This document shows, in pieces, positions 1 through 51,845 of a DNA stretch of 64,000 nt. Origin of the DNA: a virus. Made by a program: the position numbers and the translations under genes. How positions within the stretch are numbered: the stretch's first letter is position 1; each line of letters begins with the position of its first letter. The notes under the pieces are model-generated. The model was not told the origin of the DNA and ran no database searches. It was given only the letters and a program-made list of their open reading frames with translations. Location: positions 1 to 64,000 of IMG/VR virus record IMGVR_UViG_3300025000_000083, one strand, 5' to 3'.

Positions 1-56
1 ACCTGTTTTTGGATTTGGATTTCTTTTTAAAAAGAGAAAAAATTGCTTCTTAATTC

Positions 57-145
57 TTTACTCTACTTTACTTTAGTTTACTATACTCTACTTTACTCTA
101 CTTTACTCTACTTTACTCTACTTTACTCTACTTTACTTTGTGTAC
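57..145. repeat. Tandem pentamer array (TACTY)n / (RAGTA)n, candidate replication-origin element
   Basis: Tandem tactc/tactt units directly after the initiator stop; stops occur in all minus-strand frames; adjacent direct repeats TTTCTGGCGCAGA at about 166-178 and 218-230. Confidence 0.75.
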
Positions 146-157
146 TTTGGACGCAGA

Positions 158-619
158 TTATGATGTTTCTGGCGCAGAAATATCGCTTTCTGCATCAAAT
201 ATACCGTTTTGATTGTATTTCTGGCGCAGATTAATTTTCAATTCTTCACAAATAGCAGTAAAACTCAGACACATCCTGTTCCTTTTTCGGTACACTTCCT
301 TTATTCCTTTTATAAAATTCAGCGACCAAATAATCCGGTTTTCCCAGAGTTCAAAATGAATTGCTCCAAGATCAGCAAGAGTATCATAAATTTCCTGTAA
401 TTCCTGTTCAGAAAGATTCATATAGGCAGATAAATATTGCCAATCTTCTTTCTTCCGACAATCAATAAAATGATTGTTGTTTTTACCAAGCAGTTCAAGA
501 GTTTTGAACCACACCGTATATCCCTTAAATGGATGTTTGCTATCCAATATAAACAGGGTCTTGCCATGTTCACATTGGTGTGGAAAATAATCCACAACAT
601 TTTTATCCTGTCTTGCCAT
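158..619 (-). CDS. DUF4373/Lin1244-like phage replication initiator (N-terminal wHTH)
   Basis: Starts MARQDKNVVDYFPH, then GY.VWFK.LE.L; this pattern is typical of lambda-O-like initiators. Confidence 0.7.
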   Translation of the reverse strand: MARQDKNVVDYFPHQCEHGKTLFILDSKHPFKGYTVWFKTLELLGKNNNHFIDCRKKEDWQYLSAYMNLSEQELQEIYDTLADLGAIHFELWENRIIWSLNFIKGIKEVYRKRNRMCLSFTAICEELKINLRQKYNQNGIFDAESDISAPETS

Positions 620-779
620 TTTGCCACGCTTTAGTTAAAAAGGATGCCTCCGAGACAAAAGAAAACCACATTAGGAAGCGTGACCGACCCGTTGTGGTAT
701 CTGATGCCCGGAGGCAATATCTTAATGAAATGTTTTTATTGGTTTTCATACGTCACGCTTTTAGTACACCACAAATATA
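620..779 (-). ncRNA. Promoter plus type-B structured leader of the initiator gene
   Basis: TATATTTG at 772-779; stem 705-716/645-657; loop GTCACGCTT is complementary to AAGCGTGAC (752-760) and AAAGCGTGGC (623-632). Confidence 0.65.
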
Positions 780-801
780 AACTTTATTTTCTAATTACAA
801 T

Positions 802-1668
802 TCAAATCTCATTTTCCCTGCAAAACTTATCAACACGGTTGTACATTGCATAATCTTCATCATGCAGTCGCATACGCACACGTGCCATATTGCCACGATC
901 CGTCTTTGTTGTACCCCAATAATGGGTGTACTTGCGCCCACGGTCTTCCCCTGCTTTTTTGGCATCTTTGTTAATAACTTTTACCTCCGGCCTTAGTCCA
1001 TGTGCCTTGATAAGTGATGCGGCAAAATACTGTTCATGGAATAAGTTCTGGTGGATTATCACGTCACCATAGGTCTTAAAGAATAGCTTCTGGTTCTCCG
1101 GTGCAAAGATGTACTCCTGAGAGCATTTCAGCCACTCCTTGAAGAAATCCATGTCATGTCCACCGCATATCCCGCAGTTATACGCAAAGTCCGTCACGGG
1201 GTTATCCACGATGATCTGAGGTTTGACCTTGGCTTTGTTAAAACACGGACGCAAGAGATTGTAGTAATGGTAGCCGACAAGATGCATAGGCTCATGGCTC
1301 TGAAAGCACAGACGGGCATTGAGAATCTTTGGTGCCAGCGGATCCCATAGGAACACGTCATTGTCGATATGTACAAACGGTGTAGTCTGCTCATTATATG
1401 CAAGTAGCTTGCCGTATGCCCAGAAGAACCGGGACACCTCTTTCATCTCATTGAGCTTATTGGAATAGCTTGTGATGGGTAGCCCGAGTGCCTTGATTAC
1501 ATCCACGCCCCAGTCAGAAGAAATAAACTGCACCTCCTTAAAGTGTCGGGAGGCGCAGAGTATTGATAGTGACTGAGTGAATAGAAAATCACTGAACTTA
1601 TTGAATCCTGCCCTGTTGCCGAAGGTTTCATCAGGATTGAAATAAGAAAATACTGCCTTCTTTATCAT
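802..1668 (-). CDS. DUF6734-like nucleotide-sugar transferase-fold protein
   Basis: FWAYGKL.AY, PFVHIDNDVFLW, YNCGICGG, EQY and YTHYWG motifs. Confidence 0.65.
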   Translation of the reverse strand: MIKKAVFSYFNPDETFGNRAGFNKFSDFLFTQSLSILCASRHFKEVQFISSDWGVDVIKALGLPITSYSNKLNEMKEVSRFFWAYGKLLAYNEQTTPFVHIDNDVFLWDPLAPKILNARLCFQSHEPMHLVGYHYYNLLRPCFNKAKVKPQIIVDNPVTDFAYNCGICGGHDMDFFKEWLKCSQEYIFAPENQKLFFKTYGDVIIHQNLFHEQYFAASLIKAHGLRPEVKVINKDAKKAGEDRGRKYTHYWGTTKTDRGNMARVRMRLHDEDYAMYNRVDKFCRENEI

Positions 1669-1684
1669 AGTTCTGATGGATTAA

Positions 1685-1927
1685 TTAAACCCACCCACTG
1701 CCAATGGCATCGCCATAGCTTGTGTAGTCAGTTGTGCCACTGCAGAGAATACTCTTAGCGGCTGCCAGCCTCCACTGCCATTCACTCAGGGAACATGTGG
1801 TGACACACTTGTGCATGTCGTGCCACTGTGCTCCTTCTTTGGGACCATGTGTCGTATGAGCCACAACTGTGTTCTCGACATTCACCCGGCAATTGAGGTA
1901 AACCCTCGCTTTAATGTTTGTTGCCAT
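1685..1927 (-). CDS. Small protein, paralogous to the N-terminus of 2153-2677; ends in a YGDAIG motif
   Basis: Clean ORF; G.Q and EW..RLA.A...L are shared with the neighbouring gene. Confidence 0.65.
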   Translation of the reverse strand: MATNIKARVYLNCRVNVENTVVAHTTHGPKEGAQWHDMHKCVTTCSLSEWQWRLAAAKSILCSGTTDYTSYGDAIGSGWV

Positions 1928-1984
1928 GATTAAAAAAGAATTACGTTTAGAAACTATGTTTAGAAAAATAAATTACATTATATG

Positions 1985-2146
1985 AGTTCTCCAAAATCGG
2001 CATCAACTCTTCCGCACCCTCATTTATCCTCATCGGGTTTCAGGCTGACCAATAACACAGATTTATGGTCACTTACCGGATAACGGTTGACATCCGTCTT
2101 TAATTTCCTTGTCGAAGGGAATATTTTTATCCGACTTCAAAGAACT
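1985..2146 (-). ncRNA. Candidate structured ncRNA of about 162 nt
   Basis: 16-bp closing helix 2146-2131/2000-1985, fully paired when G-U is allowed, enclosing several hairpins. Confidence 0.5.
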
Positions 2147-2152
2147 TTTTTA

Positions 2153-2677
2153 TCATACAAGAGGTGTTACAAAACTCCTCACGTTGCCATATCTCGTAAA
2201 GAGACCTGCAGTATTAGCCCATGCCCTGTAATAATACTTTGTTCCGGGGGTCAGTCCTGCTATTGCAGCGGTTATCGGTTCGTCATCGTGGAGTGCTGCC
2301 ACGGGACTTTCTGCTGCATCCTGAGTGCTGGTGTTGACATCCCTGGTTGTGCCATACACAAATCCACAACTTGCTTGTCCGTCTGTGGACACCCTGCCAT
2401 TAAGTGTTACGCTATTCTTTGTCAGAAGGGTGACATCCTCGGATACGGCTTTCGGAGGACCGTCATTATCGAGTTCCCATCCTTCGTGCAGGACAAGTGT
2501 GGCATCGGCAAGCCTACGGTCCCACTCATCTTTATCAATGGTTATCTCCGGCATGGAGGCATGGTACTAAAGTTGCCTTCCCGATTCTCTTCCGGCCTTG
2601 GATGATCCTCTCTCAGTCACCTCTACAAGAATGTAGCTGACCCGTGCTTTTACTTTAAATTCTCTTACTACTGCCAT
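2153..2677 (-). CDS. FN3-like domain protein with an in-frame TAG at codon 37 (ORF track starts it at 2554)
   Basis: ATG at 2677 is in frame with 2554; TAG at 2569-2567; C-terminal GLTPGTKYYYRAWA...YG FN3 motif. Confidence 0.6.
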
Positions 2678-2718
2678 GATACTTACGTTTTAGTTTAACA
2701 TACATTTACAGTGTAAAA

Positions 2719-3135
2719 TTAGTCTTTTTTACGAAGCAACGCAAACACATCTTTATTTTTATCATCATCCAAGGGTAATCTCGCAATACGAAACACCACC
2801 GATGAGGGTTTATCCACACCCACACCATGACACGTTCTCTCCCATGTTGCATCAATGACATGTCTTGCCAGTCCCACGTTGTTAAACACCGCACCACCGG
2901 ATGACTCTTTTCTTAACTGCCATCCCTCTGTATCAACGAACACACCAAAATCAGACTTATTCTTGGTATCTCTACACATATTCACCGTAGCATAGCCACT
3001 TTTCTTATCCAGTAGTCCCAGATGCTTCACCGCAGCTTTATTGAAGTGCACAAGACCCATATTGGTAAACCTCACCGTAGGCTCACCCCTCATGGTGTCA
3101 ATAAACTCCTCCTTGCTCAGTCTTTCTATTTCCAT
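2719..3135 (-). CDS. Hypothetical protein
   Basis: 138-aa ORF in operon. Confidence 0.6.
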   Translation of the reverse strand: MEIERLSKEEFIDTMRGEPTVRFTNMGLVHFNKAAVKHLGLLDKKSGYATVNMCRDTKNKSDFGVFVDTEGWQLRKESSGGAVFNNVGLARHVIDATWERTCHGVGVDKPSSVVFRIARLPLDDDKNKDVFALLRKKD

Positions 3136-3140
3136 AGTAA

Positions 3141-3641
3141 TTATTTGAAATTTAAGTTTGCAAATTCACCTTTAAGTTCTTTTGCTTTAGCATCGTATCT
3201 TTTTGCCGCAATTACAGGATCCCGGCTACAGCCAAGATCGTAAATTATCCCATTATGGGTTATTGTTGCAGAATAAGAAATTTCAAAAGTATTAGTCTTT
3301 TTTTTAAACCACCTATGTTCACTGACTCCGAGATAAGGGATTTTACCTCGGGGTTTAATCCAGCTCCTATTTTGATTTACAGTGCAATTTCTTAAATTAT
3401 ATTTCTGATTATTTAATCCATTCCAGTCCTTGTGGTCTGTCTGCATATTGTCGGGGGTTTTCATTATTTCCCTGTGCATTAATAGCATAATCCGCTTACC
3501 TTTTTTATTCGTTGTGTTTCTTTGCGCATAATAAGTATCTCTGCTTTTACGAGCAAACCATTTCCATTGGTTTAACCATTCGTAATCCGAATCATCGACC
3601 ATTGTAACTAATCCTCTTGTAAGTGGTATTGTTTTCATCAT
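3141..3641 (-). CDS. HNH homing endonuclease with AP2 DNA-binding domain
   Basis: MKTIPLTRG..TMVDD.DY, MHREIM, DHKDWNGLNNQKYNLR, AAKRYD..A.EL.GEFA.LNF. Confidence 0.9.
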   Translation of the reverse strand: MMKTIPLTRGLVTMVDDSDYEWLNQWKWFARKSRDTYYAQRNTTNKKGKRIMLLMHREIMKTPDNMQTDHKDWNGLNNQKYNLRNCTVNQNRSWIKPRGKIPYLGVSEHRWFKKKTNTFEISYSATITHNGIIYDLGCSRDPVIAAKRYDAKAKELKGEFANLNFK

Positions 3642-10746: not shown

Positions 10747-10967
10747 TTGTCTTTGATTTCAGTTAACCCCTTCTGTCTGTCCCTTGCCCACTTAGCACCT
10801 TGTCTTCTGCAAGTTTGATCATGGGTCTCATGATGAAAATTAATTGGATATTGTTTCTCTATCTCCTCATCTGTCAGCTCTGATCTCTGGCTGGCATCCG
10901 ATTCAAGGATATATTTGCCTTTTACATCAATCTCCATTCCGTGTCTCGTCCAATTATACTTTTTCAT
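10743..10967 (-). CDS. Hypothetical protein
   Basis: LTDEEIE...GAKWARD motif. Confidence 0.55.
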   Translation of the reverse strand: MKKYNWTRHGMEIDVKGKYILESDASQRSELTDEEIEKQYPINFHHETHDQTCRRQGAKWARDRQKGLTEIKDK

Positions 10968-11401
10968 TTATTTAATTTTTCTTGTTTTAAAAAATTATCT
11001 CTTATCTCAACAGCATCTTCATACGTTTTTGCAGGAAAACTATATGTATTAGGTCTTCTGGTTATTGAAACACGATATGTAGAACAATTATTTCTTTTCT
11101 GGATACAAACACTATCACGATGTCTTCTATTTATCTGATTTTCGCTACGTGTAACGAATCTGCAATTATTAGGTTCATAATTTCCGTCATTATTTATCCT
11201 GTCTATTTGCAATGTCTCATTAAATCCATTATGATCAGCCCAGTCTTTAAATATCATAAAATCATTCCACTTATTACAAACTGAAATACCCCTACCTCCA
11301 TAATTTTTATACGATTTACAGATTGGTTTTTTACATCTATCCAGCATTCCTCTCCAAACATAATAAAGTTTGGTTTTTGATAATCCGTGTTTTCTTTTCA
11401 T
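10964..11401 (-). CDS. HNH-type homing endonuclease
   Basis: HGLSKTKLY.VW.GM..RC, YGGRGI.VC..W, IDRINNDGNYEP.NCR. Confidence 0.85.
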   Translation of the reverse strand: MKRKHGLSKTKLYYVWRGMLDRCKKPICKSYKNYGGRGISVCNKWNDFMIFKDWADHNGFNETLQIDRINNDGNYEPNNCRFVTRSENQINRRHRDSVCIQKRNNCSTYRVSITRRPNTYSFPAKTYEDAVEIRDNFLKQEKLNK

Positions 11402-14775: not shown

Positions 14776-15441
14776 TTATTTAATGTCATTGAGTTTGTAT
14801 TCTGTAAGATTATTTGCGATAATGTAATTATTCCGGGCAATTGCGGCTTCCTTAGGGGTCCTATGACACCCAAGATATATCTCTTTTTTATTCACACAAA
14901 TACCCGCTTGCCAATGATTTAGGGTATTAGGGGAGAAGCAAATTCCTGTATATCCTGACGTATTTGTTCTTCTCATCTTGGTATTAGTCCCCTGTATATG
15001 CCTTGTAGCATATCGTAAATTTCCCGGTTCATAATTACCTTCAGAGTCTATTCGGTCAATTGTGTAGCCTTCTTCACGATGATGAGGTAACTTATAGATA
15101 TATGATATAAACGCTTCCACGTCATTAAACCATTCATCACATAAGCGAATCCCCTTTCCTCCATAAAATTTATACTTTGGATTTTTTGGATTACATGTTC
15201 TTTCTTTTATATTCTGCCACACCTTAAAGTCTTTAAATTCACGCAATTCATGTATCCGATGAGAATCTCCTGCTCTTTTTCTCTGGTAGCAACCACAAGA
15301 CATTGTATTGCCTCTTTTTACATTTATTATACTTGCTTTAAAATGAGACTTGCAAAAAGGGCATTCAAAAATTGCGTTGTGTTGCGGTTGTTTACTTGTA
15401 GGTGTTGCATACTGATGTCCTAAATCTTCAATCATTTTCAT
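14776..15441 (-). CDS. HNH-AP2 homing endonuclease (alternative in-frame start at 15543)
   Basis: CPFC, SCGC, YGGKGI.LC..W, IDRID..GNYEPGNLR, NTSGY.G, AP2 tail. Confidence 0.88.
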   Translation of the reverse strand: MKMIEDLGHQYATPTSKQPQHNAIFECPFCKSHFKASIINVKRGNTMSCGCYQRKRAGDSHRIHELREFKDFKVWQNIKERTCNPKNPKYKFYGGKGIRLCDEWFNDVEAFISYIYKLPHHREEGYTIDRIDSEGNYEPGNLRYATRHIQGTNTKMRRTNTSGYTGICFSPNTLNHWQAGICVNKKEIYLGCHRTPKEAAIARNNYIIANNLTEYKLNDIK

Positions 15442-15571
15442 GGCAGTAAATATAAGGGCTCCGCAAGCAGAAGGACTATCAACAACACCCGAAGGAGTAA
15501 TTGCATCTGCTATTGGAGCCGTTAGTATTTCTTTTGATTGCATGATGTTGTTAATAGTCAATACAAAGATA
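15442..15571 (-). ncRNA. Promoter plus type-B structured leader
   Basis: TATCTTTG at 15564-15571; helices 15559-15544/15489-15474 and 15520-15506/15471-15457. Confidence 0.7.
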
Positions 15572-17496: not shown

Positions 17497-18074
17497 AACG
17501 AATAATTGTACTCTGCTTTACTACTTACCCATGACCTCTTTTGTGGCTCAATCCATTCAATGCCAATGAAGGCAAAGAAGTCCTCTTCCGTAATAAATGG
17601 AGGTGGCAATGTCGGGCAATTCTTATACTCAGGCTTGATGCGCCACGTGCTCCCCTTATGATCACACTCTCTTTTATACCTTAATCCGTCCATTGTGCCA
17701 CATAGACCCCTGCGATTCCATTGTACTGCCAACCCATGAGAAAAAACTGAGGATCCTGTCGAAATTGCAAGTATTCGTCCATAATCAGCAAGTGTAGTGA
17801 CGTGCAACTCTATCTGAATGCCCGATTCGGGGTATTTGAAGCGTTTTAAGCGAGTGCCGTTCGTCACAAGTCCTTTGAATCCTTCCGGGAACGCAATTCC
17901 CATGGAGAACTCGTCCTTGGGTACAATGACAAATTCTAAATCACCGACCATCTCACATTCCCGCCTAACTGAGCCAGCAATTGATATTTTTACACAAAAG
18001 GGAGAAATATATTTCTCAAACCTTTCTGCTATTTTTCTTGCTCGATCAAGAGACATTTTTAAATTTTTGCTCAT
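17493..18074 (-). CDS. polX: Minimal DNA polymerase X-like nucleotidyltransferase
   Basis: IAGSVRR...VGDLEFV, TGS..F, TEED.F..IG..WIEP..R; start revised to MSKNLK. Confidence 0.8.
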   Translation of the reverse strand: MSKNLKMSLDRARKIAERFEKYISPFCVKISIAGSVRRECEMVGDLEFVIVPKDEFSMGIAFPEGFKGLVTNGTRLKRFKYPESGIQIELHVTTLADYGRILAISTGSSVFSHGLAVQWNRRGLCGTMDGLRYKRECDHKGSTWRIKPEYKNCPTLPPPFITEEDFFAFIGIEWIEPQKRSWVSSKAEYNYSL

Positions 18075-18819
18075 ATATTTTAATTGCCTCAATTTCAGTT
18101 TTAAAATATCCGAAAAAATATCGTTTCCCATTAATTCGTTTAGCCGCAGCCCATCTTCCATTAGAACAATATACCCCATTGTATTGAGAACTTTTTTTCT
18201 TTCTAAATTGAGTAAAGTCGATACTAGTGTGCTTCCATGATTTATTATAAATAATTCGAGATAATTGTTCTGTTTTAATTTTAAAAGCAGAAGCAATTTT
18301 GGATCGTGGGGTTTTTTCTAATAGCATATCATGTATTCTTTTTAAATCGGATTCTTTAATTTTAGAAAAAAAATTTTGTTCTCCTAACATTCCTGTTTTT
18401 AAACCTATAGTATAAGCATGTTTATTATTTTCACTTGTTGTACACCATTTAAGGTTACTCACATGATTACAGCTTTGTATTCCATTGATGTGATTTACTA
18501 TTTTTTTGTCACTTTTTTCTAAAAAAGTTATTGCAACTAATCTATGTACGTAGAATACCTTTTCTTTATTCTCTTTCCATAAAATAACATGAAAGTAATT
18601 TAACTGCTTATTCCTTTTCCAATGGGATATAACTCTTGTTTTTGTATCAATATGCCCACATACGACACATTTTTTTTGAGACAAAGAAATTACCCTTCCA
18701 TAATTACTTATATAATATAGATTTTCATATTCAGGAATAGGCTTAAATATTTCATTAGGATACCTATATCTAAAATCTTTAAAATTAGAATCTTCGTAAA
18801 TGTTTAAATAATCTTTCAT
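18046..18819 (-). CDS. NUMOD4-HNH homing endonuclease with AP2-like tail
   Basis: FKPIPEYE.LY.ISNYGRV, VHRLVA..F, VNHING...N...NL.W.T..EN..H. Confidence 0.9.
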   Translation of the reverse strand: MKDYLNIYEDSNFKDFRYRYPNEIFKPIPEYENLYYISNYGRVISLSQKKCVVCGHIDTKTRVISHWKRNKQLNYFHVILWKENKEKVFYVHRLVAITFLEKSDKKIVNHINGIQSCNHVSNLKWCTTSENNKHAYTIGLKTGMLGEQNFFSKIKESDLKRIHDMLLEKTPRSKIASAFKIKTEQLSRIIYNKSWKHTSIDFTQFRKKKSSQYNGVYCSNGRWAAAKRINGKRYFFGYFKTEIEAIKIYEQKFKNVS

Positions 18820-18921
18820 TGTCAAGCTATTTAAGATTGTCAAGCAAAAAAGCAGAGAGAAGGAGGCTTGACTTCTCCGTATCACAGGGGGATCAATCCC
18901 TGCTATCTCTCCACAAATATA
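18820..18921 (-). ncRNA. Promoter plus type-A structured leader (copy 2)
   Basis: TATATTTG; GAGAGA-TAG-CAGGGATTGATCCCCCTG-TGATAC-GGAG..GTCAAGC.CTCC-T-TCTCTC; GCTTGAC occurs twice downstream. Confidence 0.8.
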
Positions 18922-18946
18922 TGAACTGTTGTTCATCTGTGCAAGT

Positions 18947-19808: not shown

Positions 19809-20225
19809 TTATAAAGTTTGAATTAAAATATACGTTCTTGGTGACTCTGAATATAGCTTCTCTGAGAATAACCTGCATATCTGTGAGTCGTCTTTGTAAA
19901 ATATGTGATTCATAGAATCGGTTGCGAATTTTACACAGTTATCCAAATCTTTCTTGCAGGTGTGAAACTCCGGTGCGTTATCTCTGAGCATGGAACTCTT
20001 TGCGCCACTACCATAATGACTCTTTGGTCTGCCGAAATAGAATATTATGGTTATGCCTATGGGTCCTTCTAACGGCTCCTTTGGTGCTTTCTGCTGTATC
20101 ACCGATAAAAAGTCATTTTTCTTATCACTTGATGGGTCATAGGTGCCTGAGAACTTACCTCTCTTGAAACTCCTGTGCCGCATCTGAGCATTGGGCTCAC
20201 CAAGCATCATTAATTCTATTGTCAT
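19809..20225 (-). CDS. rusA: RusA Holliday junction resolvase
   Basis: GEP....R.R, K.DLDN..K...D, DDSQI....K.Y. Confidence 0.9.
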   Translation of the reverse strand: MTIELMMLGEPNAQMRHRSFKRGKFSGTYDPSSDKKNDFLSVIQQKAPKEPLEGPIGITIIFYFGRPKSHYGSGAKSSMLRDNAPEFHTCKKDLDNCVKFATDSMNHIFYKDDSQICRLFSEKLYSESPRTYILIQTL

Positions 20226-21031
20226 TCTTTTATCTGTTTACCTATTATCCTCAACTTTTTTTCTGCATGACGTTTTATTTGAGACAAATGCATTTTTAAT
20301 TTTGTCTCGGATGTATGCAATTTCCCTAACCTATCCTTATTCCCTGTTTTGCATAGGCGCATTGCTTCTCTTTTTTCTTCTGACCACTTCCTCCCTACTG
20401 AATTTTTATTTCCTATCTTAGCCAAAGACATCTTTTTCCTTACTTCAAGAGACATGACTTTTCCTTTTTTAGCAAGACTCATTTTTAACTTTGCTTCATT
20501 TGAATGTGTCTTCCCTAAAAAGCTTTGCTGTCCCATTTTTGCCTTGCTGATATTCTCACATCTTTGTTTTTTATTATTATTCCAAGATTCACTAATTTTC
20601 TTTTTAAATTCTGGGGTTAATGGCTTCCCTTTTCCCCAAGGTATATGCCCCTTTTTAAATTCGGTATGCGGAGATATATGCAAGCCCTTATTTCGTAAAC
20701 TCTGCTTTCTACGTGATTCTACTGAATGCTTACAGCCAAGAGGGCTTCCCGCAATCTTAGAGATATTAAAATAAGGATTATATAAATCTATAAAAAATTG
20801 TTCGTTCCTAAGTAAATCAATCCTATCACAACCAATTAGCGTAGAAAAACACAAGTCATCTTCTCCATATTTATTGTAATGATCTTGCAATAAAAAAGAA
20901 TGATGTTTTTGTAATCTAAGGTCTTTGATATGTATGTTTTTTCTTTGCTCTATATGGACTGAACTTCCAATATAGCATCTTTGAAGATTACTTATAGATT
21001 GAATCATGTAAATGCCAGTGGTTGCTTTCAT
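20222..21031 (-). CDS. GIY-YIG homing endonuclease with NUMOD3 repeats (alternative start at 21136)
   Basis: GIY.I.....YIGSS, EQ.FI, repeated HS.E.K.KMS. Confidence 0.9.
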   Translation of the reverse strand: MKATTGIYMIQSISNLQRCYIGSSVHIEQRKNIHIKDLRLQKHHSFLLQDHYNKYGEDDLCFSTLIGCDRIDLLRNEQFFIDLYNPYFNISKIAGSPLGCKHSVESRRKQSLRNKGLHISPHTEFKKGHIPWGKGKPLTPEFKKKISESWNNNKKQRCENISKAKMGQQSFLGKTHSNEAKLKMSLAKKGKVMSLEVRKKMSLAKIGNKNSVGRKWSEEKREAMRLCKTGNKDRLGKLHTSETKLKMHLSQIKRHAEKKLRIIGKQIKE

Positions 21032-21164
21032 GTTAAGTATAAAAACCCCGATTGAAAGCGGCTTACTACTCGATCCATGTGATTGGAGGGAATACACTTT
21101 CGCACGGGGTGTTAATATTTCAGTTTCTTTTAACATGAATGAGTAGTAAAGCACTACAAATATA
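21032..21164 (-). ncRNA. Promoter plus type-B structured leader
   Basis: TATATTTG at 21157-21164; helices 21152-21133/21080-21061 and 21110-21095/21060-21045. Confidence 0.7.
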
Positions 21165-21421: not shown

Positions 21422-21737
21422 CTTCTTTGTATTTCCAAATGTGTCCTGCCCTTGTTTTCTTTCCTGATTTCAATGATCTCAGTATCGCTCTTGATGTGTA
21501 TCCTACTGCCTTTGCAGCCACAAGTTGATTCTCAAATTCCGCTATCTCGATCCCTCCAAGATCACACTGTATGATCTTCTTTCCCGTTGCGTGCCCATAG
21601 TGCTTTGTCCCTTCACAGAACGATATTGACACTAACTCCCTGATGTACTCCTCTGCCCTGTCCTGTCTCCATGGAGTAATCAACCCCTCCTTCTTCATCC
21701 AATACAATGCCCTCTTAACGGCTCGTTCCTGATCCAT
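21354..21737 (-). CDS. NUMOD1-domain protein
   Basis: IIQ.DL.G..I.EF.....AA....I......K.T..GHIWKY. Confidence 0.65.
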   Translation of the reverse strand: MDQERAVKRALYWMKKEGLITPWRQDRAEEYIRELVSISFCEGTKHYGHATGKKIIQCDLGGIEIAEFENQLVAAKAVGYTSRAILRSLKSGKKTRAGHIWKYKEDEDTCRSNMGEGRRVKGRRTDV

Positions 21738-22401
21738 CTCTTATAATATTCAATGGATGTTCCGTTCCATGTGCGATAACAAAATCATTGTAGGCTCGGG
21801 CTGCCTGTTCGGGGGTTAAGTGATATCCTAAACGGTATTTTTCCCCATTATAATGAATCTCAGCAACCCATCGTTTTATTCTTTCTCCTGTTTTAATATA
21901 AGAAATACCCCTATATCCTGTTGTATTTGTCTTTCTTAGTAGCCGGGTGTTCTCATTACTGATGTTTGATGTAATCCACCTGCAATTACTTGGGTAATAA
22001 CCCTTGTCATTATTTTCTCTGTCAAGCAATAATCCTTTTTTATACCCATTTACTATTGCCCAATTATAAAATGAAACAAAATTATTTTTCCATTCATCAC
22101 AAATAGTTATTCCCCTGCCCCCCCATTCTGGATATGCTTTATCTTTAGGATTCAAACACCGTTGTTGCATAGCCTTAAACACACCATAAAGAGGATGTTT
22201 GACTAACCCATGCTTTATACTTCGTTCTAAAAATAATCTTGCGTTTTCACAATGGCATGATTTTATATACCCCCGGCTTATTGCACTTACACATGCTCTG
22301 AAAGGTTGCTTACAAATAGGGCATTCATAAATGGCAAGGTGCTTTTTTTGCTTACTATTCTCTGTTGTAAATTGTCTTCCTAAATCGTGAATCATTTTCA
22401 T
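21715..22401 (-). CDS. HNH-AP2 homing endonuclease (alternative start at 22509)
   Basis: Paralog of 14776: MKMI.DLG.Q, CPIC, GGRGI.IC.EW, DR.NND.GY.P.NCRW, AP2 tail. Confidence 0.88.
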   Translation of the reverse strand: MKMIHDLGRQFTTENSKQKKHLAIYECPICKQPFRACVSAISRGYIKSCHCENARLFLERSIKHGLVKHPLYGVFKAMQQRCLNPKDKAYPEWGGRGITICDEWKNNFVSFYNWAIVNGYKKGLLLDRENNDKGYYPSNCRWITSNISNENTRLLRKTNTTGYRGISYIKTGERIKRWVAEIHYNGEKYRLGYHLTPEQAARAYNDFVIAHGTEHPLNIIRDGSGTSR

Positions 22402-22544
22402 GGGTGGAAATAATGGAGCATCCCCGGCTGCTTTAATCATCGGCATCTGTGTCGAAACGACAGAATTAGACGAAACCAGGGATGCAGTATTTTTACTTAA
22501 AATTTCCATTATTCAGATACCGTGATTAAAGCGTAGTAAAGATA
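22402..22544 (-). ncRNA. Promoter-like site plus type-B structured leader
   Basis: TATCTTTA at 22537-22544; helices 22532-22514/22449-22430 and 22485-22474/22429-22418. Confidence 0.7.
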
Positions 22545-27352: not shown

Positions 27353-28099
27353 TTAATTTTTATCTTTCTGACGCACTCGTCTTATTTTCCATGCTAATAC
27401 TAATTTTGTTTTTTGTTCTTGGGACATAGGGATTCCTTTATTATGAGCAGGGGTACCCTTACGTGCTTCACTTATCTTCTTTTTTATTTCATCTAACATA
27501 GGTCCTCGCTTTGGCATCTTATGAGATTTTCCTATTCTACAAAGACTTCTATTTATTAATGCCTGCCCAACTATTTTTCTTCCTTTATTTGCCTTAATTA
27601 TTGCTTGCCTGGTTTTTTCTGGCATTTTCCTTCCAAAATTAGGATGCTTATCTCCCTTAATAGATAATCCTCTTCTCTTTTTCCATTCCTCAGACTGTAT
27701 GCGTCCTTTGTTAGCTATACTCATTTTCCTTCTAACTTCTTCTGGTATTATCTTACCTCTATTAGCCTTTATTATTTTTTGCTTAGTTTCTTCAGTCATT
27801 TTGCGACCCAATGTACTTCCTGCTATTTTACATACATTAAAGTATGGCTGCAGAGTGTTAATATAGTATTGTTCTCTCTCAATAAGAAATTGAGGCAAAC
27901 AGGGTTCTATGATTGAAAAAATCAAATCATCAATCCCATATTTATCTGCATGATGTTGAAGTTTGGGATTATGATGAGTTTTTAGCCTAAGTTGTCTTTT
28001 GTGATCCGCCCATCTATTTTTATAATAAATAGCACTCCCAATGTAAATCCTTTCGGGCTTAACCTTGGATTGAATCTTATATATGACAGGAACGATCAT
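27353..28099 (-). CDS. GIY-YIG homing endonuclease with NUMOD3 repeats
   Basis: VIYKIQSKVKPERIYIGS, REQYYI, PYFN.CKIAGS. Confidence 0.9.
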   Translation of the reverse strand: MIVPVIYKIQSKVKPERIYIGSAIYYKNRWADHKRQLRLKTHHNPKLQHHADKYGIDDLIFSIIEPCLPQFLIEREQYYINTLQPYFNVCKIAGSTLGRKMTEETKQKIIKANRGKIIPEEVRRKMSIANKGRIQSEEWKKRRGLSIKGDKHPNFGRKMPEKTRQAIIKANKGRKIVGQALINRSLCRIGKSHKMPKRGPMLDEIKKKISEARKGTPAHNKGIPMSQEQKTKLVLAWKIRRVRQKDKN

Positions 28100-32200: not shown

Positions 32201-35200
32201 TGGAGCAGCTAATTTCTGATCCATGTGTTGCAGATGATTCACCCATGAATAAAGAATCTCATCCTTATCAAGTTTTATTATGCCATCAAGAAATGAAGGT
32301 TTCTCCTCTTTCTCTGCAAACAATGATAAAACTTTTGTTCTTGGATCCTGTGCATCATACCTATTCCAATCCGTTCTTGCCTGAGTAAGTGCATTTTTAA
32401 TCTCCGGTGCGTTCTCAATTAATTTTTCAAACCAAGCATAGAACTTTGGAGTAACCTGCTTAACCTGATCAGGATTGATCACATAGTCCTTCACAAACTC
32501 AGCGATAGCCTCAGTCCTTTTCTCTGATGGATAACCTACATATTTAAGGTAGTCTGTTAATTCTTTCTTAAACTCAGCCCTCTGCATCACTCCATCAACT
32601 ATCTCGTCTCCATGTTTCTCCCTGAGTGTAACGAGTCTTGAATCTCTTGCTTTTAATTGGATGGTGAGTTTTCCAATAAGATCATTTGCCTTTGGTGATT
32701 TTATCCTCCCTTTCGTCACGTCTGCATTTATAGCATCCTCGGTCTTGTATGTCCTTCCTTTATACTTAACTCCGGGGATTTTTACTGCGGCAGTAACATC
32801 AGCAAATCTATCTCCCTCAACCTTTGATCTATGGCCAATAACTCCACGAATGTCAAAAGCAAACTGATCTATGTAGTGACCTATCTCATGGGCTAATACC
32901 CTGACATCACTGATATTCTTAACCCTGATGACTCCACTCTGAGAATTGAATATCCCTGCTGCCTTCCGCATAAACCTCTTGATCATTCCGGTTCTGACCT
33001 GTTCTCCCTCAGTCTTGCCTATGTTCTTTACAAGTCCTCTGCCCATATTACGAAGTGACATGGCATTATTCAAATCACTTGACTTATAATTCGGGTCTTC
33101 TGTTGTCGATACGGGCAATGGCTGATCCCATGCAAGTTCTTCTGGATTGTCTGTTTTGGGTTCTGTCTTTAGTTTCTTCTGTCCTTTTGCCCTTGGTGCT
33201 GATGGGAATCCTTCTACCTTCCCCCCTTTGCCTCCCTTTTTAGGTGGTGGAGGATTAAGATTATTCACATCCTCCCTGATCTGCTTTGACTCATCAAAGG
33301 TTATCTCTCCCCTGTCAATAGCCTCCAATACTTCATCTACGGATTGGTAGGTTTTGTCTTTAAAGGTGACTCCGTTCTTTTCTACTTTTGCGGCAATAGG
33401 TTTTGCCTCACCTTCTGTTTCAACTGGTTTAACATCTGTCTCTGTGCCTCCTGAAACGATATTCCCTTCTTCTTTGCCAGTAGTAATGTCTCCTTGGTTT
33501 GGTTTTTCATTGGTGTCTGATTTTATTCCTTCGGTTCCTTTTTCTTTGCCGCCTTCAACATCGCCAGTAGCGTTAGCAAGGTAGTCTTCTTCGGCTGTTC
33601 TGGACTCTTGTTCTGCTTTTCTGATGTACTCTGTGATTTCATCATATTCGATTTTAGTTATTAATCCTTTTTCAAGTGCCTTATCTGCATCGGTGTATGA
33701 GTAATTATCAAGTTCTGCACGGTTTCTCTTTATCAAATCCTCCCTCTCTGCACGTATATCATCACGGGATATTGATACCTTGGACTTTCCTTCTGCATTC
33801 CAGATGTCAATACCTCCATGCTCTTTATACATGCGTTCAAGTTCATTCAATGCCTGTGCTGATGCGGTGGATTTCTTTCCTTCTTTGATGTCACGGAATG
33901 CCTGAGCCCTCTGTTCATTACTCAGACCGCCTATCATCACACCATAGAGATCGGGGTTCGTATCGAATACATCCGCAACATACTTCTGAAACTCAGCATC
34001 TCTCTCTGAGAGTGGCTTCTGTGATTCAATCTTAACCTTATCAACCTTTGTCGGGTCTTTTCTGAGAGCAAGAAATTTGCCATCTTTGATAACACCTACC
34101 TTCCACTCATCGCCCTCTTTTACTTCATATCCAAGTCTCTTTGCATTTACCCTTATGGTGTTTGCCTGTAAAGCATTTTTCTTCTTCTGTGATGCGGATA
34201 AGATGCTATAACTACGTGCTGCGTCAATAAGTTCATTCTTTTCAAGTTCTTTCTGGGGTGTCTTAACAAGTCCTGTCTCAACGGGTTCCTCTTTGCCTTT
34301 CTGCTTAGACTTTATCTCGGCTTTTTTGTTCTCCGTCCATTCATTGATTGCCTTAACAGTCTCGGGTGACGGCCATGAATTGACCTCTCTGTCAAACCAC
34401 CTCTCATCAACTTCACCGCTCTTTTTATCAATGGCAACATCTTCCAGATAGGTAGCAAGTTCCTTCTTGTCAGCAAATGACTTGTCACCTAATGCCAATT
34501 TCTCATCAGTTACTTCTTCCGGTGCTTTCTCTGACTTCTTCTCCTTCTTGGGTGCATAATCCTCCAATGGCTTGCTTAAAGTAGTTTCAAGTGCCTTATT
34601 CTGTTCCTCGATCTGAGTTGTGATAGACTGTACCTTTGCATCTTTTATCTTCTGATCGGTGCTGGTATCTTCCTGCCAATACTGCAACTCGGATTCCTTT
34701 TTCCTGATGTCATCCACAATCGGCTCTGCTTCTGTAATACGTGGGTCGGCTTCCTTTACTGTGGTGTTGATCTTGTCAGTCCATATCTTTTTTTCCTTTG
34801 CAGATAGCTTCGGGTCATTCTGTATGTTATCAATGAATGCCTTGGGATTCTTTACTATTTCCTGAGTCATGGCATTTACGCTGATGATGTTGTCAATGGA
34901 TGTCTTTTCATCAAGTAACTTCTTTTTCAGTTCTGGATCAGTTTCCTTTTCATACTCATTCCACAACTCATCAGACTGCTTCCGTAACTTCATCGGGTCA
35001 ACCTGCATCTTGGATATTGTCTTGATGGCATTATCCGTGGTGGTCAGGTATGAAATGTACGACCTGTGAGCAATAGACCTGTTCATAGCCTCCATGCCAA
35101 TATCATATCCTGAGAATAAGCCTCCCATTATAGCTCCTTCCATGAATGTACCTCCCTTTAACTTTGAATCGGCACCGAACATTATGCTATTTGCAAGTCC

Positions 35201-43963: not shown

Positions 43964-45481
43964 TTAAGGCGTATCCCGCATGCAACGAACCGAACATCCA
44001 GCTGACTTATTAATATCGCTTCTAAATGCTTGAATATTATTCCATAAAATATAGCGAGACCATGCATTCGCTCCCCCTGCCACAGTAGAACTCCATTTAT
44101 TACCATAGTTAGTTTTTTGATAAAACACACCATCATTGCCACGATAACCACCAGGCATATATTTGAGTCCATATTCATCTGTAGCCCCTGTATTTGGTGT
44201 TGTCCAATGATCTAATCCCATTTCTTTTAGTTTCCCCCCAGCAACAAAATCGCCCCCTGCGAATGCCATTAAAGCAGACCAATCTGCATCACTTGGGACT
44301 CTCCATCCCGTAGGTGCAAGATAGGCTCCTGCAACAACATTGTGATGATCTACTGCGTACCAATTATAAAGTAATCCATAATCAGGTATATTTAAAGGAT
44401 CATTATTGTAAGCACAATATCCTTCTGTTATCAATGCTGCCCATGCGGCATTACCAACTACTTCTGTTATTGGAGACCCATCTCGGAATTTAGTTGTCTT
44501 TAGATTCTCTACCATCCACTGCTGAGCACCAATAGTAACATAAGTATAAACATTACCATCTGCATCAATAATTCCATCTTGGGTTGTTATAGTCGAGGTA
44601 TTTGAATTTGGACTTGTACCAACATCATTATATGCACGTACACGGTAATAATATGGTGTCAGAGGTGATAATCCACTGACTGTATCAAATAATACATTGC
44701 CTACATCCTTATTGTTAAACCCTGCCACAAATGCAGTAAAATTCACATCCGTTGCTACATCGAGATAATATCCCGTCACCCCTTCTACTGCCAACCAGTT
44801 TGCTATAAAGGTCGTAGGTGTCTTCACACTCCCATTTATCGCTACCGGAGCCACGGGTTCACCCTCATCAGCAAGCCACAAAAGACAATTATCTCCAAGT
44901 AGGTCAAACAATAAATCAAACTTACCTCCGGGCACTGCACGGAATCCTGAAAGATCACTTGCCCCTGTATTCGGGTCTGTCCAATGCTGTTCCCCTGTCT
45001 CCTTTAATTTTCCGCCTGCTATCGCTGCACCACCAAGATATGTTAATAACGTGTCAATATCTGCCTCCGTAGGTACTCTCCACCCATCAGGGCAAAAGCC
45101 TGCTGTCATTACCTGACCATGCGTATAAAGCCTCCCATAGATGTCTGCATTATCCTCAGTGTCATCATATACCTTACTGCCCGGATACTCACCATCATAG
45201 TTCTTCTTCATCCACGTTTGAGTGCCTATAACTATCTCATTATAGCCACTATAAACAAATTGTCCACCAATACTCGATCCATAATATGTGATGAGATTAT
45301 TGGGATTGATTAAAATGCAAACTTCAGACTGCAATGATTCAGCATTTCCGCTTTCGTTCTGAGATGCAGAGGATAAAGCACGGATATTTAAAGCCTCGAT
45401 ATATTCTCCGGGCTGCAAATCGGCAGGCGCATCGTCTTTGTTCAAGCCAATCTTAAATGATTTCTTATCCTTCAATTGCAT
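43964..45481 (-). CDS. Muzzle N-terminal fragment fused to FISUMP-FN3-FISUMP
   Basis: F..GLNKD......GEY..ALNIR; IG.Q.WM..NL, YG.LYNW, P.GWRVP, G.SVRC..D; YYYRVRAYN..G.S. Confidence 0.75.
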   Translation of the reverse strand: MQLKDKKSFKIGLNKDDAPADLQPGEYIEALNIRALSSASQNESGNAESLQSEVCILINPNNLITYYGSSIGGQFVYSGYNEIVIGTQTWMKKNYDGEYPGSKVYDDTEDNADIYGRLYTHGQVMTAGFCPDGWRVPTEADIDTLLTYLGGAAIAGGKLKETGEQHWTDPNTGASDLSGFRAVPGGKFDLLFDLLGDNCLLWLADEGEPVAPVAINGSVKTPTTFIANWLAVEGVTGYYLDVATDVNFTAFVAGFNNKDVGNVLFDTVSGLSPLTPYYYRVRAYNDVGTSPNSNTSTITTQDGIIDADGNVYTYVTIGAQQWMVENLKTTKFRDGSPITEVVGNAAWAALITEGYCAYNNDPLNIPDYGLLYNWYAVDHHNVVAGAYLAPTGWRVPSDADWSALMAFAGGDFVAGGKLKEMGLDHWTTPNTGATDEYGLKYMPGGYRGNDGVFYQKTNYGNKWSSTVAGGANAWSRYILWNNIQAFRSDINKSAGCSVRCMRDTP

Positions 45482-46284
45482 AATGATGCTTCTTGTTGCT
45501 CTATTTTATTTTTTAATTTTCTTAATTCCCATGTTTTTAATGCAGATAAACGACATCTTTCCTTTACCTCGGAGGATCTCGGCTTCCGCATTTTCTGTTT
45601 ACTCTCCTCTGTATGTTTAAATCCTTTATGCGACTGACTCATCTTCTCTCGCAGTTCTTCCGGCATCTTTTTACCCTTCCATGGACCAGGTCTCCCTTTG
45701 CTTGCTATTGACATCTTCGCTAAAGTCTCTTTTGAAAAGCGTCCATGAGTCCCTTTATACTTATTTGGTCTGCCTGTACTTGCAATGCGAGTTCTCTCTC
45801 GATGCATATCAGACATTTTTCTCCCTAAGTTATTTTTATTCCCCTTATGAGCCCTCGACATCTTCTCTCTTGTTTCTTTTGAATATATCCTGTTTTTAGC
45901 AAATTCCCTCATCTTTTGTCTTGTTTTTTCCGATGGGTTACTATTTGCTTTTCCAATCTTCTTTCTTGTTTCTCCTGATAATTTACGTCCTAAAGAACTT
46001 CCTGCTATCTTACAGATATTAAAATATGGTTTCAATTTACTTATATAAAACTGTTCTCTGTTTATCATCCAATCAGAAAAACAAGGTTCAATAATTGAGA
46101 ATTGTAAATCGTCAATCCCGTATTTATTAACATGATATTGAAGTTTTTTAGAATGATGTTTATTGTCGATTAAATGTTTAAAGTGTTCTCTCCACCGATG
46201 AGTTATATCTAAAGAACTTCCAATATAAATCCTTTCGGGTTTAATCTTAGACTGAATCTTATATATGCCAGATTGGTTTTTCAT
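45472..46284 (-). CDS. GIY-YIG homing endonuclease with NUMOD3 repeats
   Basis: GIYKIQSKIKPERIYIGS. Confidence 0.9.
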   Translation of the reverse strand: MKNQSGIYKIQSKIKPERIYIGSSLDITHRWREHFKHLIDNKHHSKKLQYHVNKYGIDDLQFSIIEPCFSDWMINREQFYISKLKPYFNICKIAGSSLGRKLSGETRKKIGKANSNPSEKTRQKMREFAKNRIYSKETREKMSRAHKGNKNNLGRKMSDMHRERTRIASTGRPNKYKGTHGRFSKETLAKMSIASKGRPGPWKGKKMPEELREKMSQSHKGFKHTEESKQKMRKPRSSEVKERCRLSALKTWELRKLKNKIEQQEASLCN

Positions 46285-51140: not shown

Positions 51141-51845
51141 TTATGGTTTTAAATTTATTAATTCCTTTTCTCTCATAGCTCTTATCTTTCGAGAATTGCT
51201 CATTTTTTGTTTGGTGATTTCTGATACTAGTTTATTTATATGAGCTATCTTATTTTTTAAATTAGATTCCGGCTTATGATGTTTCCCGAAGAAGGGATGA
51301 TTTGCATCTGCATATTTCCCTTTTCTTGCATCACTCATCCGCTTCCGAGTATCTTCTGATATTACGTTCTTCATCCCTTTATTCCATGAAGGTTTTCCTG
51401 TTTTTTTACCTTTGTTCCATGCGATCACAACACCTTTAGTACCTTTATTAGAAGGAGACTGTCCTTTATGCGAATTACTCATCTGCTGTATGGTTTCATC
51501 TGAAAAACAATCTTTCTTCCCCTTGTTCCATGGAATCTGCCCCTTAACACCAAACCTGCTCCCTGCAATTTTACATAAATTAAAATAGGGTTTTAATGTA
51601 TCGAGATAATATTGTTCTCTTGCAAGTAAAAACGCAGAAAAGCAGGGTTCTATAATCGTAAATATCAAATCGGATTCTCCGTACTTATTAAAATGGTTTT
51701 TAAACTTAACAGAATGATGTCCTCTCTGTTTAAAATCTCGCAAATGGACTTTCCATCTATCTTTTATATTCATTGCACTCCCGATATAAATCCTTTCGGG
51801 TTTAATCTTAGACTGAATTTGATATATTCCGCTAACCGGGGCCAT
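51141..51845 (-). CDS. GIY-YIG homing endonuclease with NUMOD3 repeats
   Basis: GIYQIQSKIKPERIYIGS; PWNKG repeats. Confidence 0.9.
   Translation of the reverse strand: MAPVSGIYQIQSKIKPERIYIGSAMNIKDRWKVHLRDFKQRGHHSVKFKNHFNKYGESDLIFTIIEPCFSAFLLAREQYYLDTLKPYFNLCKIAGSRFGVKGQIPWNKGKKDCFSDETIQQMSNSHKGQSPSNKGTKGVVIAWNKGKKTGKPSWNKGMKNVISEDTRKRMSDARKGKYADANHPFFGKHHKPESNLKNKIAHINKLVSEITKQKMSNSRKIRAMREKELINLKP

Follow-up and report, generated by a model that had tools for sequence, protein, structure and literature searches.

The replication initiator gene of the virus record IMGVR_UViG_3300025000_000083 (IMG/VR) is preceded by a leader in which the loop of a long hairpin is complementary to sites at two translation starts, and the question raised by this locus is whether, and in what way, the leader governs the synthesis of the initiator. 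The record is 72,210 bp long, has direct terminal repeats and carries nearly all of its genes on the minus strand; its positions 1 to 64,000 are referred to here as the window. From its sequence, the leader is a conserved, uncatalogued regulatory RNA with a family of its own, for which the name self-masking translated leader was adopted. As the loop can pair with the start of an upstream open reading frame (uORF) and, at this locus, also with the start of the initiator gene, the leader very probably sets how much initiator is made.

Organization of the leader

The leader lies in the 182-nucleotide (nt) gap between a DUF6734 gene (1668..802) and the initiator gene (619..158), on the minus strand, and its parts are listed in Table 1. 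The first of these was termed promoter-like with reference to TAnnTTTG, which we take to be the Bacteroidota promoter consensus. Box A occupies most of the short 5' leader of the uORF, which traverses the whole hairpin and stops 16 nt inside the initiator gene, out of frame with it. Box A and the AUG of the uORF, together a target of ribosome size, are complementary to a loop that is exposed downstream of them. The 153-amino-acid product of the initiator gene matched Pfam Lin1244_N (E 2.6e-7) and PHROG 2562, 'replication initiation protein' (E 1.2e-16). A preliminary description of this DNA had used the name DUF4373, a label that does not come from a profile search and that we take to denote the Lin1244_N family.

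Table 1. Positions of the parts of the leader and of other features in the window.
Feature	Position	Strand	Basis or remark
Promoter-like -7 box TATATTTG	779-772	minus	window sequence
Box A AAAGCGTGAC	761-752	minus	2 nt 5' of the uORF ATG; complement of box B
uORF, 48 codons, ATG at 749	749..603	minus	program list of open reading frames
Hairpin, 70 nt, G+C-rich base stem GCCUCCG.../...CGGAGGC	715-646	minus	predicted -33.8 kcal/mol
Box B GTCACGCTT, apical loop of the hairpin	684-676	minus	mean unpaired probability 0.72 within the hairpin
U-rich tail ATCCTTTTTA	645-636	minus	6/10 T
Box C AAAGCGTGGC	632-623	minus	3 nt 5' of the initiator ATG
Initiator gene, ATG at 619, product of 153 amino acids	619..158	minus	list of open reading frames; Pfam and PHROG matches
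Homing-endonuclease-like genes	3141-3641, 10967-11401, 14779-15543, 18049-18936, 20225-21136, 21715-22509, 27356-28099, 45475-46284, 51144-51845

The predicted duplex between boxes A and B had 9 Watson-Crick pairs (-15.4 kcal/mol), and that between boxes C and B had 9 pairs including one G-U (-14.6 kcal/mol). Box C differs from box A by a single A-to-G change, which retains a G-U pair with box B. The whole 191-nt leader was predicted to fold with an energy of -48.1 kcal/mol (z = -2.59 against shuffles). The motif AAGCGTGRC matched three times in the 64-kb window, each time in the leader (shuffle mean 0.39, with 1 of 100 shuffles reaching three matches), and no additional copy was found across the whole 72,210-bp genome, in which boxes A and C were the sole 9-nt targets of the loop.

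Distribution of the leader

Protein-guided scans for relatives of the initiator returned 5, 33, 23 and 4 loci, which gave 41 distinct upstream regions after de-duplication (loci are cited below by their L numbers). The leader was present directly 5' of the initiator in 11 of these regions, as ten distinct leaders (the window, L020, L010, L005, which is identical to L015, L003, L011, L002, L022, L013 and L018), and farther upstream of the initiator in one more, L021. The initiator proteins of the carriers were all at least 59% identical to the query; the leader was missing in L001 (84% identity), in L004 (71%) and in every relative at 57% or less. In each carrier the boxes were unlike those of the window, yet mutually complementary.

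A 16-nt pattern taken from the 5' arm matched 28 stretches of the viral collection, 16 with a leader and 12 unrelated, and yielded ten new distinct leaders, located before genes other than the initiator. The gene downstream encoded a DUF6291 protein (L067), DnaD-like or replisome-organizer proteins (L073 and, weakly, L087), an HNH endonuclease (L076), an HTH protein (L079), an endonuclease (L090) or products of no assigned family (L066, L074, L084 and L091). With a second DNA pattern, from the 3' arm, 12 stretches were obtained: six leaders already found, one new truncated copy (L123) and five unrelated. A covariance model was built from 16 leaders by mapping per-sequence folds to alignment columns; these folds replaced RNAalifold on the plain MAFFT alignment, which had given only 4 pairs, with the 3' arm out of register. 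The window copy scored 114.6 bits with this model, which also detected one further copy in the window, a weak one (22408-22530; 28.9 bits, E 0.0015), and two leader copies in each of the records G002 and G004.

Two further forms of the leader were recognised. The sub-group of L002 (1370-1503) and of L022 and L013, at the corresponding place 5' of the initiator ATG, has the three boxes, with boxes A and C identical over 12-13 nt, and a conserved M..IKKI-like uORF of 7 codons which stops before a differently built hairpin without a U-tail. L018 represents an additional divergent form (22 bits with the covariance model).

Outside these loci, four distant relatives of the initiator (37-51% identity), none carrying the leader, were found by a protein scan of cellular genome contigs. 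The covariance model found nothing in two metagenome-assembled genomes, nor in 151 genomes sampled from the phylum to which one of them belongs; the latter search, in which only 22 candidates per genome were scored with no positive control, carries little weight. In Rfam, a cmscan of the whole window at gathering thresholds gave no match, and a search of positions 560-840 at E up to 10 gave a single chance match, to the icaR 3'UTR (9 bits, E 9.4). Neither tRNA nor tmRNA was found in the window, and blastn of window positions 1-2000 against phage GenBank records gave no match. A literature search, whose coverage left out most subscription journals, found no description of such a leader.

Covariation of boxes and stems

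Pairing of the loop with the start region of the uORF (A:B) was found in all 18 group-1 leaders, which carry at least 12 different box sequences. The cognate A:B duplex comprised 9-11 contiguous base pairs in 16/16 leaders and was purely Watson-Crick in 15 of these, and its mean energy was -15.9 kcal/mol, compared with -9.0 kcal/mol for the 240 non-cognate combinations of the same 16 leaders; L021 and L102, which also pair A with B, complete the 18. When pairs were counted in a fixed register on the 18-sequence alignment, 87.7% of cells were paired, a level that none of 500 shuffles reached, against 79.4% after shuffling and 34-55% with slid partners. The 25% of cells left unpaired in the A:B helix were mostly due to register shifts in the alignment. 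Compensatory changes were present in 7 of the 10 A:B pairs, in 6 of the 16 lower-stem pairs and in 4 of the 5 upper-stem pairs of this alignment.

The boxes vary while the hairpin scaffold stays fixed. Per site, the leaders differed pairwise by a mean of 0.39-0.43 in the boxes and 0.21-0.22 in the arms, and by 0.53 in the uORF spacer. Between L084 and L087 none of 54 arm sites differed, and between L003 and L011 only 1 of 54 did, while each box differed at 3 of 10 positions in both comparisons.

The uORF, the tail and the promoter-like box

The ATG of the uORF was placed 0-4 nt 3' of box A and 31-34 nt 5' of the hairpin in 16/16 leaders. Its frame was free of stops from the ATG to the end of the hairpin in every one of these, as against 4 of the 32 alternative frames, and in L021 and L102 the leader ORF likewise runs through the hairpin. 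The phase of the uORF relative to the hairpin was 0 in six leaders, 1 in seven and 2 in three. As the uORF is kept open in all three phases, translation itself is under selection, and not a peptide.

The uORF ends at the start of the next gene. Its stop lay 4-63 nt 3' of the hairpin and adjoined or overlapped that start, as UGAUG in L073 and AUGA in L091, and in L003, L005, L010 and L021, as in the window, the uORF overlaps the start of the initiator. Frameshifting from the uORF into the initiator was ruled out, since the uORF of most leaders ends before the gene starts. The hairpin is followed by a U-rich tail, the 10 nt 3' of it containing a mean of 6.9 T in the 16 leaders, where the T fraction of the sequences is 0.32. 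A TAnnTTTG box ended 17-24 nt 5' of the uORF ATG in 13/16 leaders. On the opposite strand, no box of the TAnnTTTG type was found within the hairpin or in the 90 nt beyond it in 15/16 leaders, a search confined to this type of promoter.

Pairing at the start of the downstream gene

Box C was scored as clear when at least 7 pairs were possible between the gene-start stretch and the loop, and as marginal with 6 pairs. Among 20 leaders it was clear in the window, L020, L005, L073, L002, L022, L013 and L018, marginal in L010 and L091, and absent in the other 10. L021 adds one clear case and L102 has no following gene, which brings the total to 9 clear in 22 leaders. Clear cases were concentrated in the leaders linked to DUF4373 initiators (8 clear, 1 marginal and 2 absent of 11), and only 1 of the 11 leaders outside this set had one. 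Box C is therefore optional, and its patchy distribution indicates that it is not essential to the leader family. In the window, L020 and L005, the differences between boxes A and C inside the paired stretch keep a G-U pair, and the register in which box C and the loop pair is shifted in L010, where box C is therefore no copy of box A. Differences of this kind are the behaviour of RNA partners and not of protein-binding DNA repeats.

These results bear directly on the preliminary description. Its element positions and three-box layout agreed with the minus-strand sequence in every statement, its 48-codon uORF is real and selected to stay open, and its proposal of an RNA-level switch in the leader of the initiator gene finds support in the conserved, covarying pairing. 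A loop able to pair either upstream or over the initiator start was likewise borne out by the predicted duplexes. In the comparison of related DUF4373 leaders that it proposed, the complementarity of A with B was retained throughout; box C stood for the window and for most of the initiator leaders, but not as a general feature of the family.

Proposed mechanism

The leader probably acts in cis, as a terminator-like attenuator gated by translation and masking its own start sites. From the organization described above we infer termination at the tail, coupling, the order of events and repression by pairing. Transcription would begin a few bases 3' of TATATTTG, and box A and the uORF start would be the first part of the transcript to be made. 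A promptly loaded ribosome would translate the uORF through the 70-nt hairpin, the G+C-rich stem and U-tail would then not form behind the polymerase, and read-through would result. Having terminated 16 nt into the initiator gene, the ribosome might be handed over to the initiator ATG by coupling or re-initiation. If box A were free of ribosomes when the loop emerges, or once the ribosomes had gone by, box B would pair with box A and the uORF start would be closed. The hairpin would then persist, and transcription would halt at the U-tail and/or coupled translation would be blocked. In the initiator leaders box B may pair with box C as well, covering the initiator's own start. The net outcome would be a gate that limits the synthesis of initiator per transcript.

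Several points weigh against this attenuator. The 18 leaders are kin, and the counts made on them are not independent events. A search for RNA runs containing window positions 1-3000 listed none. The tail of the window copy, AUCCUUUUU, is interrupted, and relatives such as L020 have stronger terminator tails; the hairpin greatly exceeds the usual length of an intrinsic terminator and was not listed by a simple terminator scan. In L002, L022 and L013 the 7-codon uORF ends before the hairpin and the U-tail is missing, so that control of read-through is not the whole story; control by this sub-type is probably limited to translation. The pairing is read here as repressing, although it may instead activate. 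Finally, if an untranslated uORF always led to termination, A:B pairing would seem redundant in cis, which leaves room for a role in trans.

If the attenuator operates as proposed, it would represent a class of translation-sensing attenuator that is new and can be tested, offer a way into how phages dose their replication initiator, and supply a natural set of at least 12 orthogonal loop/target pairs that might be reused as regulators. The leader is compact (about 130 nt) and well defined, with an ORF translated through a terminator-like hairpin and a loop 'address' for its own start that can be freely changed. Knowledge of gene regulation in Bacteroidota and their phages is sparse. Bacteroidota largely lack Shine-Dalgarno-led initiation, and so the masking of a start site by RNA should be especially effective in them.

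Alternative explanations

A role in trans would make the leader a regulator like P4 CI or P1 C4, in the form of an accumulated hairpin RNA that has been terminated or processed, and this was considered unlikely. The box B loop would bind boxes A and C on other transcripts, so that the replication gene is shut by genome dosage, and the variable boxes would be specificity classes for immunity or incompatibility. The P1/P7 C4 RNA has a layout comparable to that of P4. In P4, the CI RNA is seqB, seqA and seqC are sited in the replication operon's leader, expression is believed to cease upon pairing, and an untranslated primary transcript is processed to give CI as a stable small RNA (PMC4825925). 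The A-B-C layout found here fits that account: the leader of a replication gene holds, on its sense strand, an element with complementarity to one upstream and one downstream site. The boxes change fast and in concert on a frozen scaffold, with at least 12 box classes in 18 leaders, and box class does not track the gene that follows: L020 has the boxes of the window at a protein identity of 60%, and L010 has boxes that differ from those of the window at 80%. The restriction of the 9-nt targets of the loop to boxes A and C also accords with a role in trans, and the hairpin with its U-tail resembles the 3' end of a small RNA. The records G000, G002 and G004 each hold two leaders whose boxes differ, but with at least 12 classes two leaders per genome are expected to differ by chance. 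Moreover, the box A of each short RNA would mask its own loop in cis unless the RNA were processed, and we know of no processing of the leader RNA. Other differences are that the downstream site is optional here, that no Rfam family matched the leader (Rfam presumably holds models for the P4/P1 phage RNAs), that neither integrase nor repressor, and hence no lysogeny module, was found among the 71 ORFs scanned, and that the host range differs, as judged by a promoter box of what we take to be the Bacteroidota type. The region also appears to be translated, unlike the CI precursor (PMC4825925). Of the P4/P1 analogy in the preliminary description, the layout was thus upheld, while membership of the family was not, given the apparent translation of the region and the lack of an Rfam match. 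More doubtful still is a programmable address system, in which short terminated leader RNAs work in trans, with specificity classes set by the rapidly changing pair of boxes. If true, every early or replication operon, and every phage lineage, would respond to the dosage of its own transcript alone, lytic Bacteroidota phages would follow a P4-like logic of immunity or incompatibility without a lysogeny module, and homing endonucleases would exploit the leaders by inserting behind them.

A role of the pairing in activation, as in the pseudoknots of IncI-alpha/IncB-type plasmids, appears improbable. Translation of the uORF would open the structure, B:C pairing beside the initiator start would activate translation of the initiator, and the competitor for the loop would be A:B pairing or an antisense RNA. 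Accounts of rep control in IncI-alpha, IncB and IncL-M plasmids feature a leader peptide (RepY/RepB), a pseudoknot and an antisense Inc RNA, with the loop as control point (PMC8053102; PMC10724649). The window shares with these an initiator preceded by a leader ORF that overlaps its start, for which R1 tap-repA is also grouped here, and an upstream hairpin loop complementary to bases just 5' of the initiator ATG. The box C counts given above nevertheless argue against a B:C activator even among the initiator-linked leaders, and the universal partner of the loop is the start of the leader ORF itself and not that of the initiator. In addition, the uORF here runs through the hairpin, after which comes a U-rich tail; as for a countertranscript promoter, 15/16 leaders lack a box of the TAnnTTTG type on the opposite strand; and the element belongs to a phage, not a plasmid, with no homology to the IncI-alpha/IncB plasmids. 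Least credible is that the boxes are DNA sites, whether operators or iterons bound by the initiator or by a repressor, or inverted repeats at the ends of a segment that can invert. A 9-10 bp motif does occur three times, twice in direct and once in inverted orientation, beside a promoter-like box and an initiator gene, and covariation of repeats cannot by itself separate DNA sites from RNA pairing. However, the middle site is always in the loop of a hairpin whose stems covary independently, and the differences between copies are G-U-compatible or register-shifted. At least 12 box classes precede initiators that are 59-80% identical, the motif has no copy elsewhere in the 72-kb genome, where a set of operators or iterons would usually recur at the origin, and inversion of the segment of about 76 bp would wreck the conserved hairpin and uORF. 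The other conserved repeat, GTAAAG, stands 3' of the initiator gene whatever the box class; this array, conserved across several classes, would be a better candidate than the boxes for binding of the initiator.

Comparison with other leaders

Attenuation of pyrBI in E. coli depends on a leader ORF that extends through an intrinsic terminator, the hairpin of which is prevented by a closely following ribosome. The leader described here resembles it in having an ORF of about 35-55 codons through a terminator-like hairpin and a U-tract, kept in 16/16 leaders. It differs in that pyrBI is not known to have loop-to-start pairing and responds to pausing dependent on uridine triphosphate, whereas the hairpin of the leader is about 70 nt long with a 20-nt loop carrying a variable address. 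In the PeSL cassettes of T4-type phages an early promoter and a stem-loop are repeated before variable genes, and here too a module of promoter-like box and hairpin recurs before unrelated early genes, within and between phage genomes, with mobile endonuclease genes associated. The PeSL cassettes, however, are described as modules of recombination or shuffling, and are not known to have a uORF or loop-to-start complementarity. The leader belongs to none of the P4, IncI/IncB and pyrBI families; judged on sequence evidence, it is a new variant that combines known attenuator and antisense logics.

Genomic context and associated endonucleases

A total of 71 ORFs of the genome were scanned, 8 against both Pfam and PHROGs, 51 against PHROGs only and 12 against Pfam only. 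The matches included portal, large terminase and structural proteins and an endolysin, as well as RecT-like, RecE-like and RusA-like proteins, a single-stranded DNA-binding protein and a primase/helicase. The preliminary description had considered its reading consistent with a non-lytic state; this gains no support from the scans with hidden Markov models (HMMs), which found no integrase or repressor among these ORFs across the 72-kb genome, although absence from HMM scans is not proof.

At least 9 homing-endonuclease-like genes (HNH types and phrog_314, 'homing endonuclease') were distributed over the replication and structural modules of the window (Table 1). One of them continues from the second leader copy, 22408-22530 (minus strand), whose 'uORF' extends in frame as an HNH endonuclease of 264 amino acids (ORF 22509..21715, minus strand; phrog_374, E 1.3e-50). 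This copy has its own complementary pair, GCTTTAATCA (22532-22523) and TGATTAAAGC (22439-22430), the second box being beside the 3' arm and not in the apical loop. At L021 (719-1659), the leader contains boxes A, B and C (AAAAGGGCTAA), and after it comes MARPDKNIVDYFP, which represents an initiator's first 13 residues and is fused to an HNH ORF, the stop of which is overlapped by a complete initiator gene. This looks like the insertion of a homing endonuclease at a conserved DYFP|HQCEHG site, by which it would have inherited the leader of the initiator. The HNH ORF of L004 likewise starts with ...DYFP, and in L026 and L027, which have no leader, the initiator ATG is closely preceded by the same C-terminal end of the HNH ORF. 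The suggestion in the preliminary description that the initiator leader is a source of leaders for endonucleases was therefore partly supported: members of this family stand before HNH or endonuclease genes at L076, at L090 and in the window at 22.5 kb, and at L021 an HNH gene stands behind the leader of an initiator. The family shows that homing endonucleases are able to ride on an existing regulatory leader.

Directly 3' of the initiator gene, a tandem array with a period of 5/20 (CTTTACTTTACTCTACTTTA, 4.2 copies) was present at window positions 56-139. GTAAAG/CTTTAC repeats were found 3' of the initiator gene in the window and in L001, L002, L004, L005, L020, L021 and L022, with any box class, and are candidate iterons or a candidate origin. 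L102 (1501-1900; G004 33571-33690 and beyond) contains a 46-bit leader copy with no protein gene after it, the place of which is taken by repeated AGTGAATCA motifs; this stretch is perhaps another repeat-type origin.

The remainder of the genome (L127; G000 64001-72210) contains genes of metabolic type, for a MaoC-like dehydratase, a methyltransferase, a KAS III-like synthase and a short-chain dehydrogenase in a row, together with one more HNH gene. The three identical initiator loci L006-L008 are 72,083 bp apart on one metagenome contig of 216,338 bp, which is a three-fold concatemer assembly.

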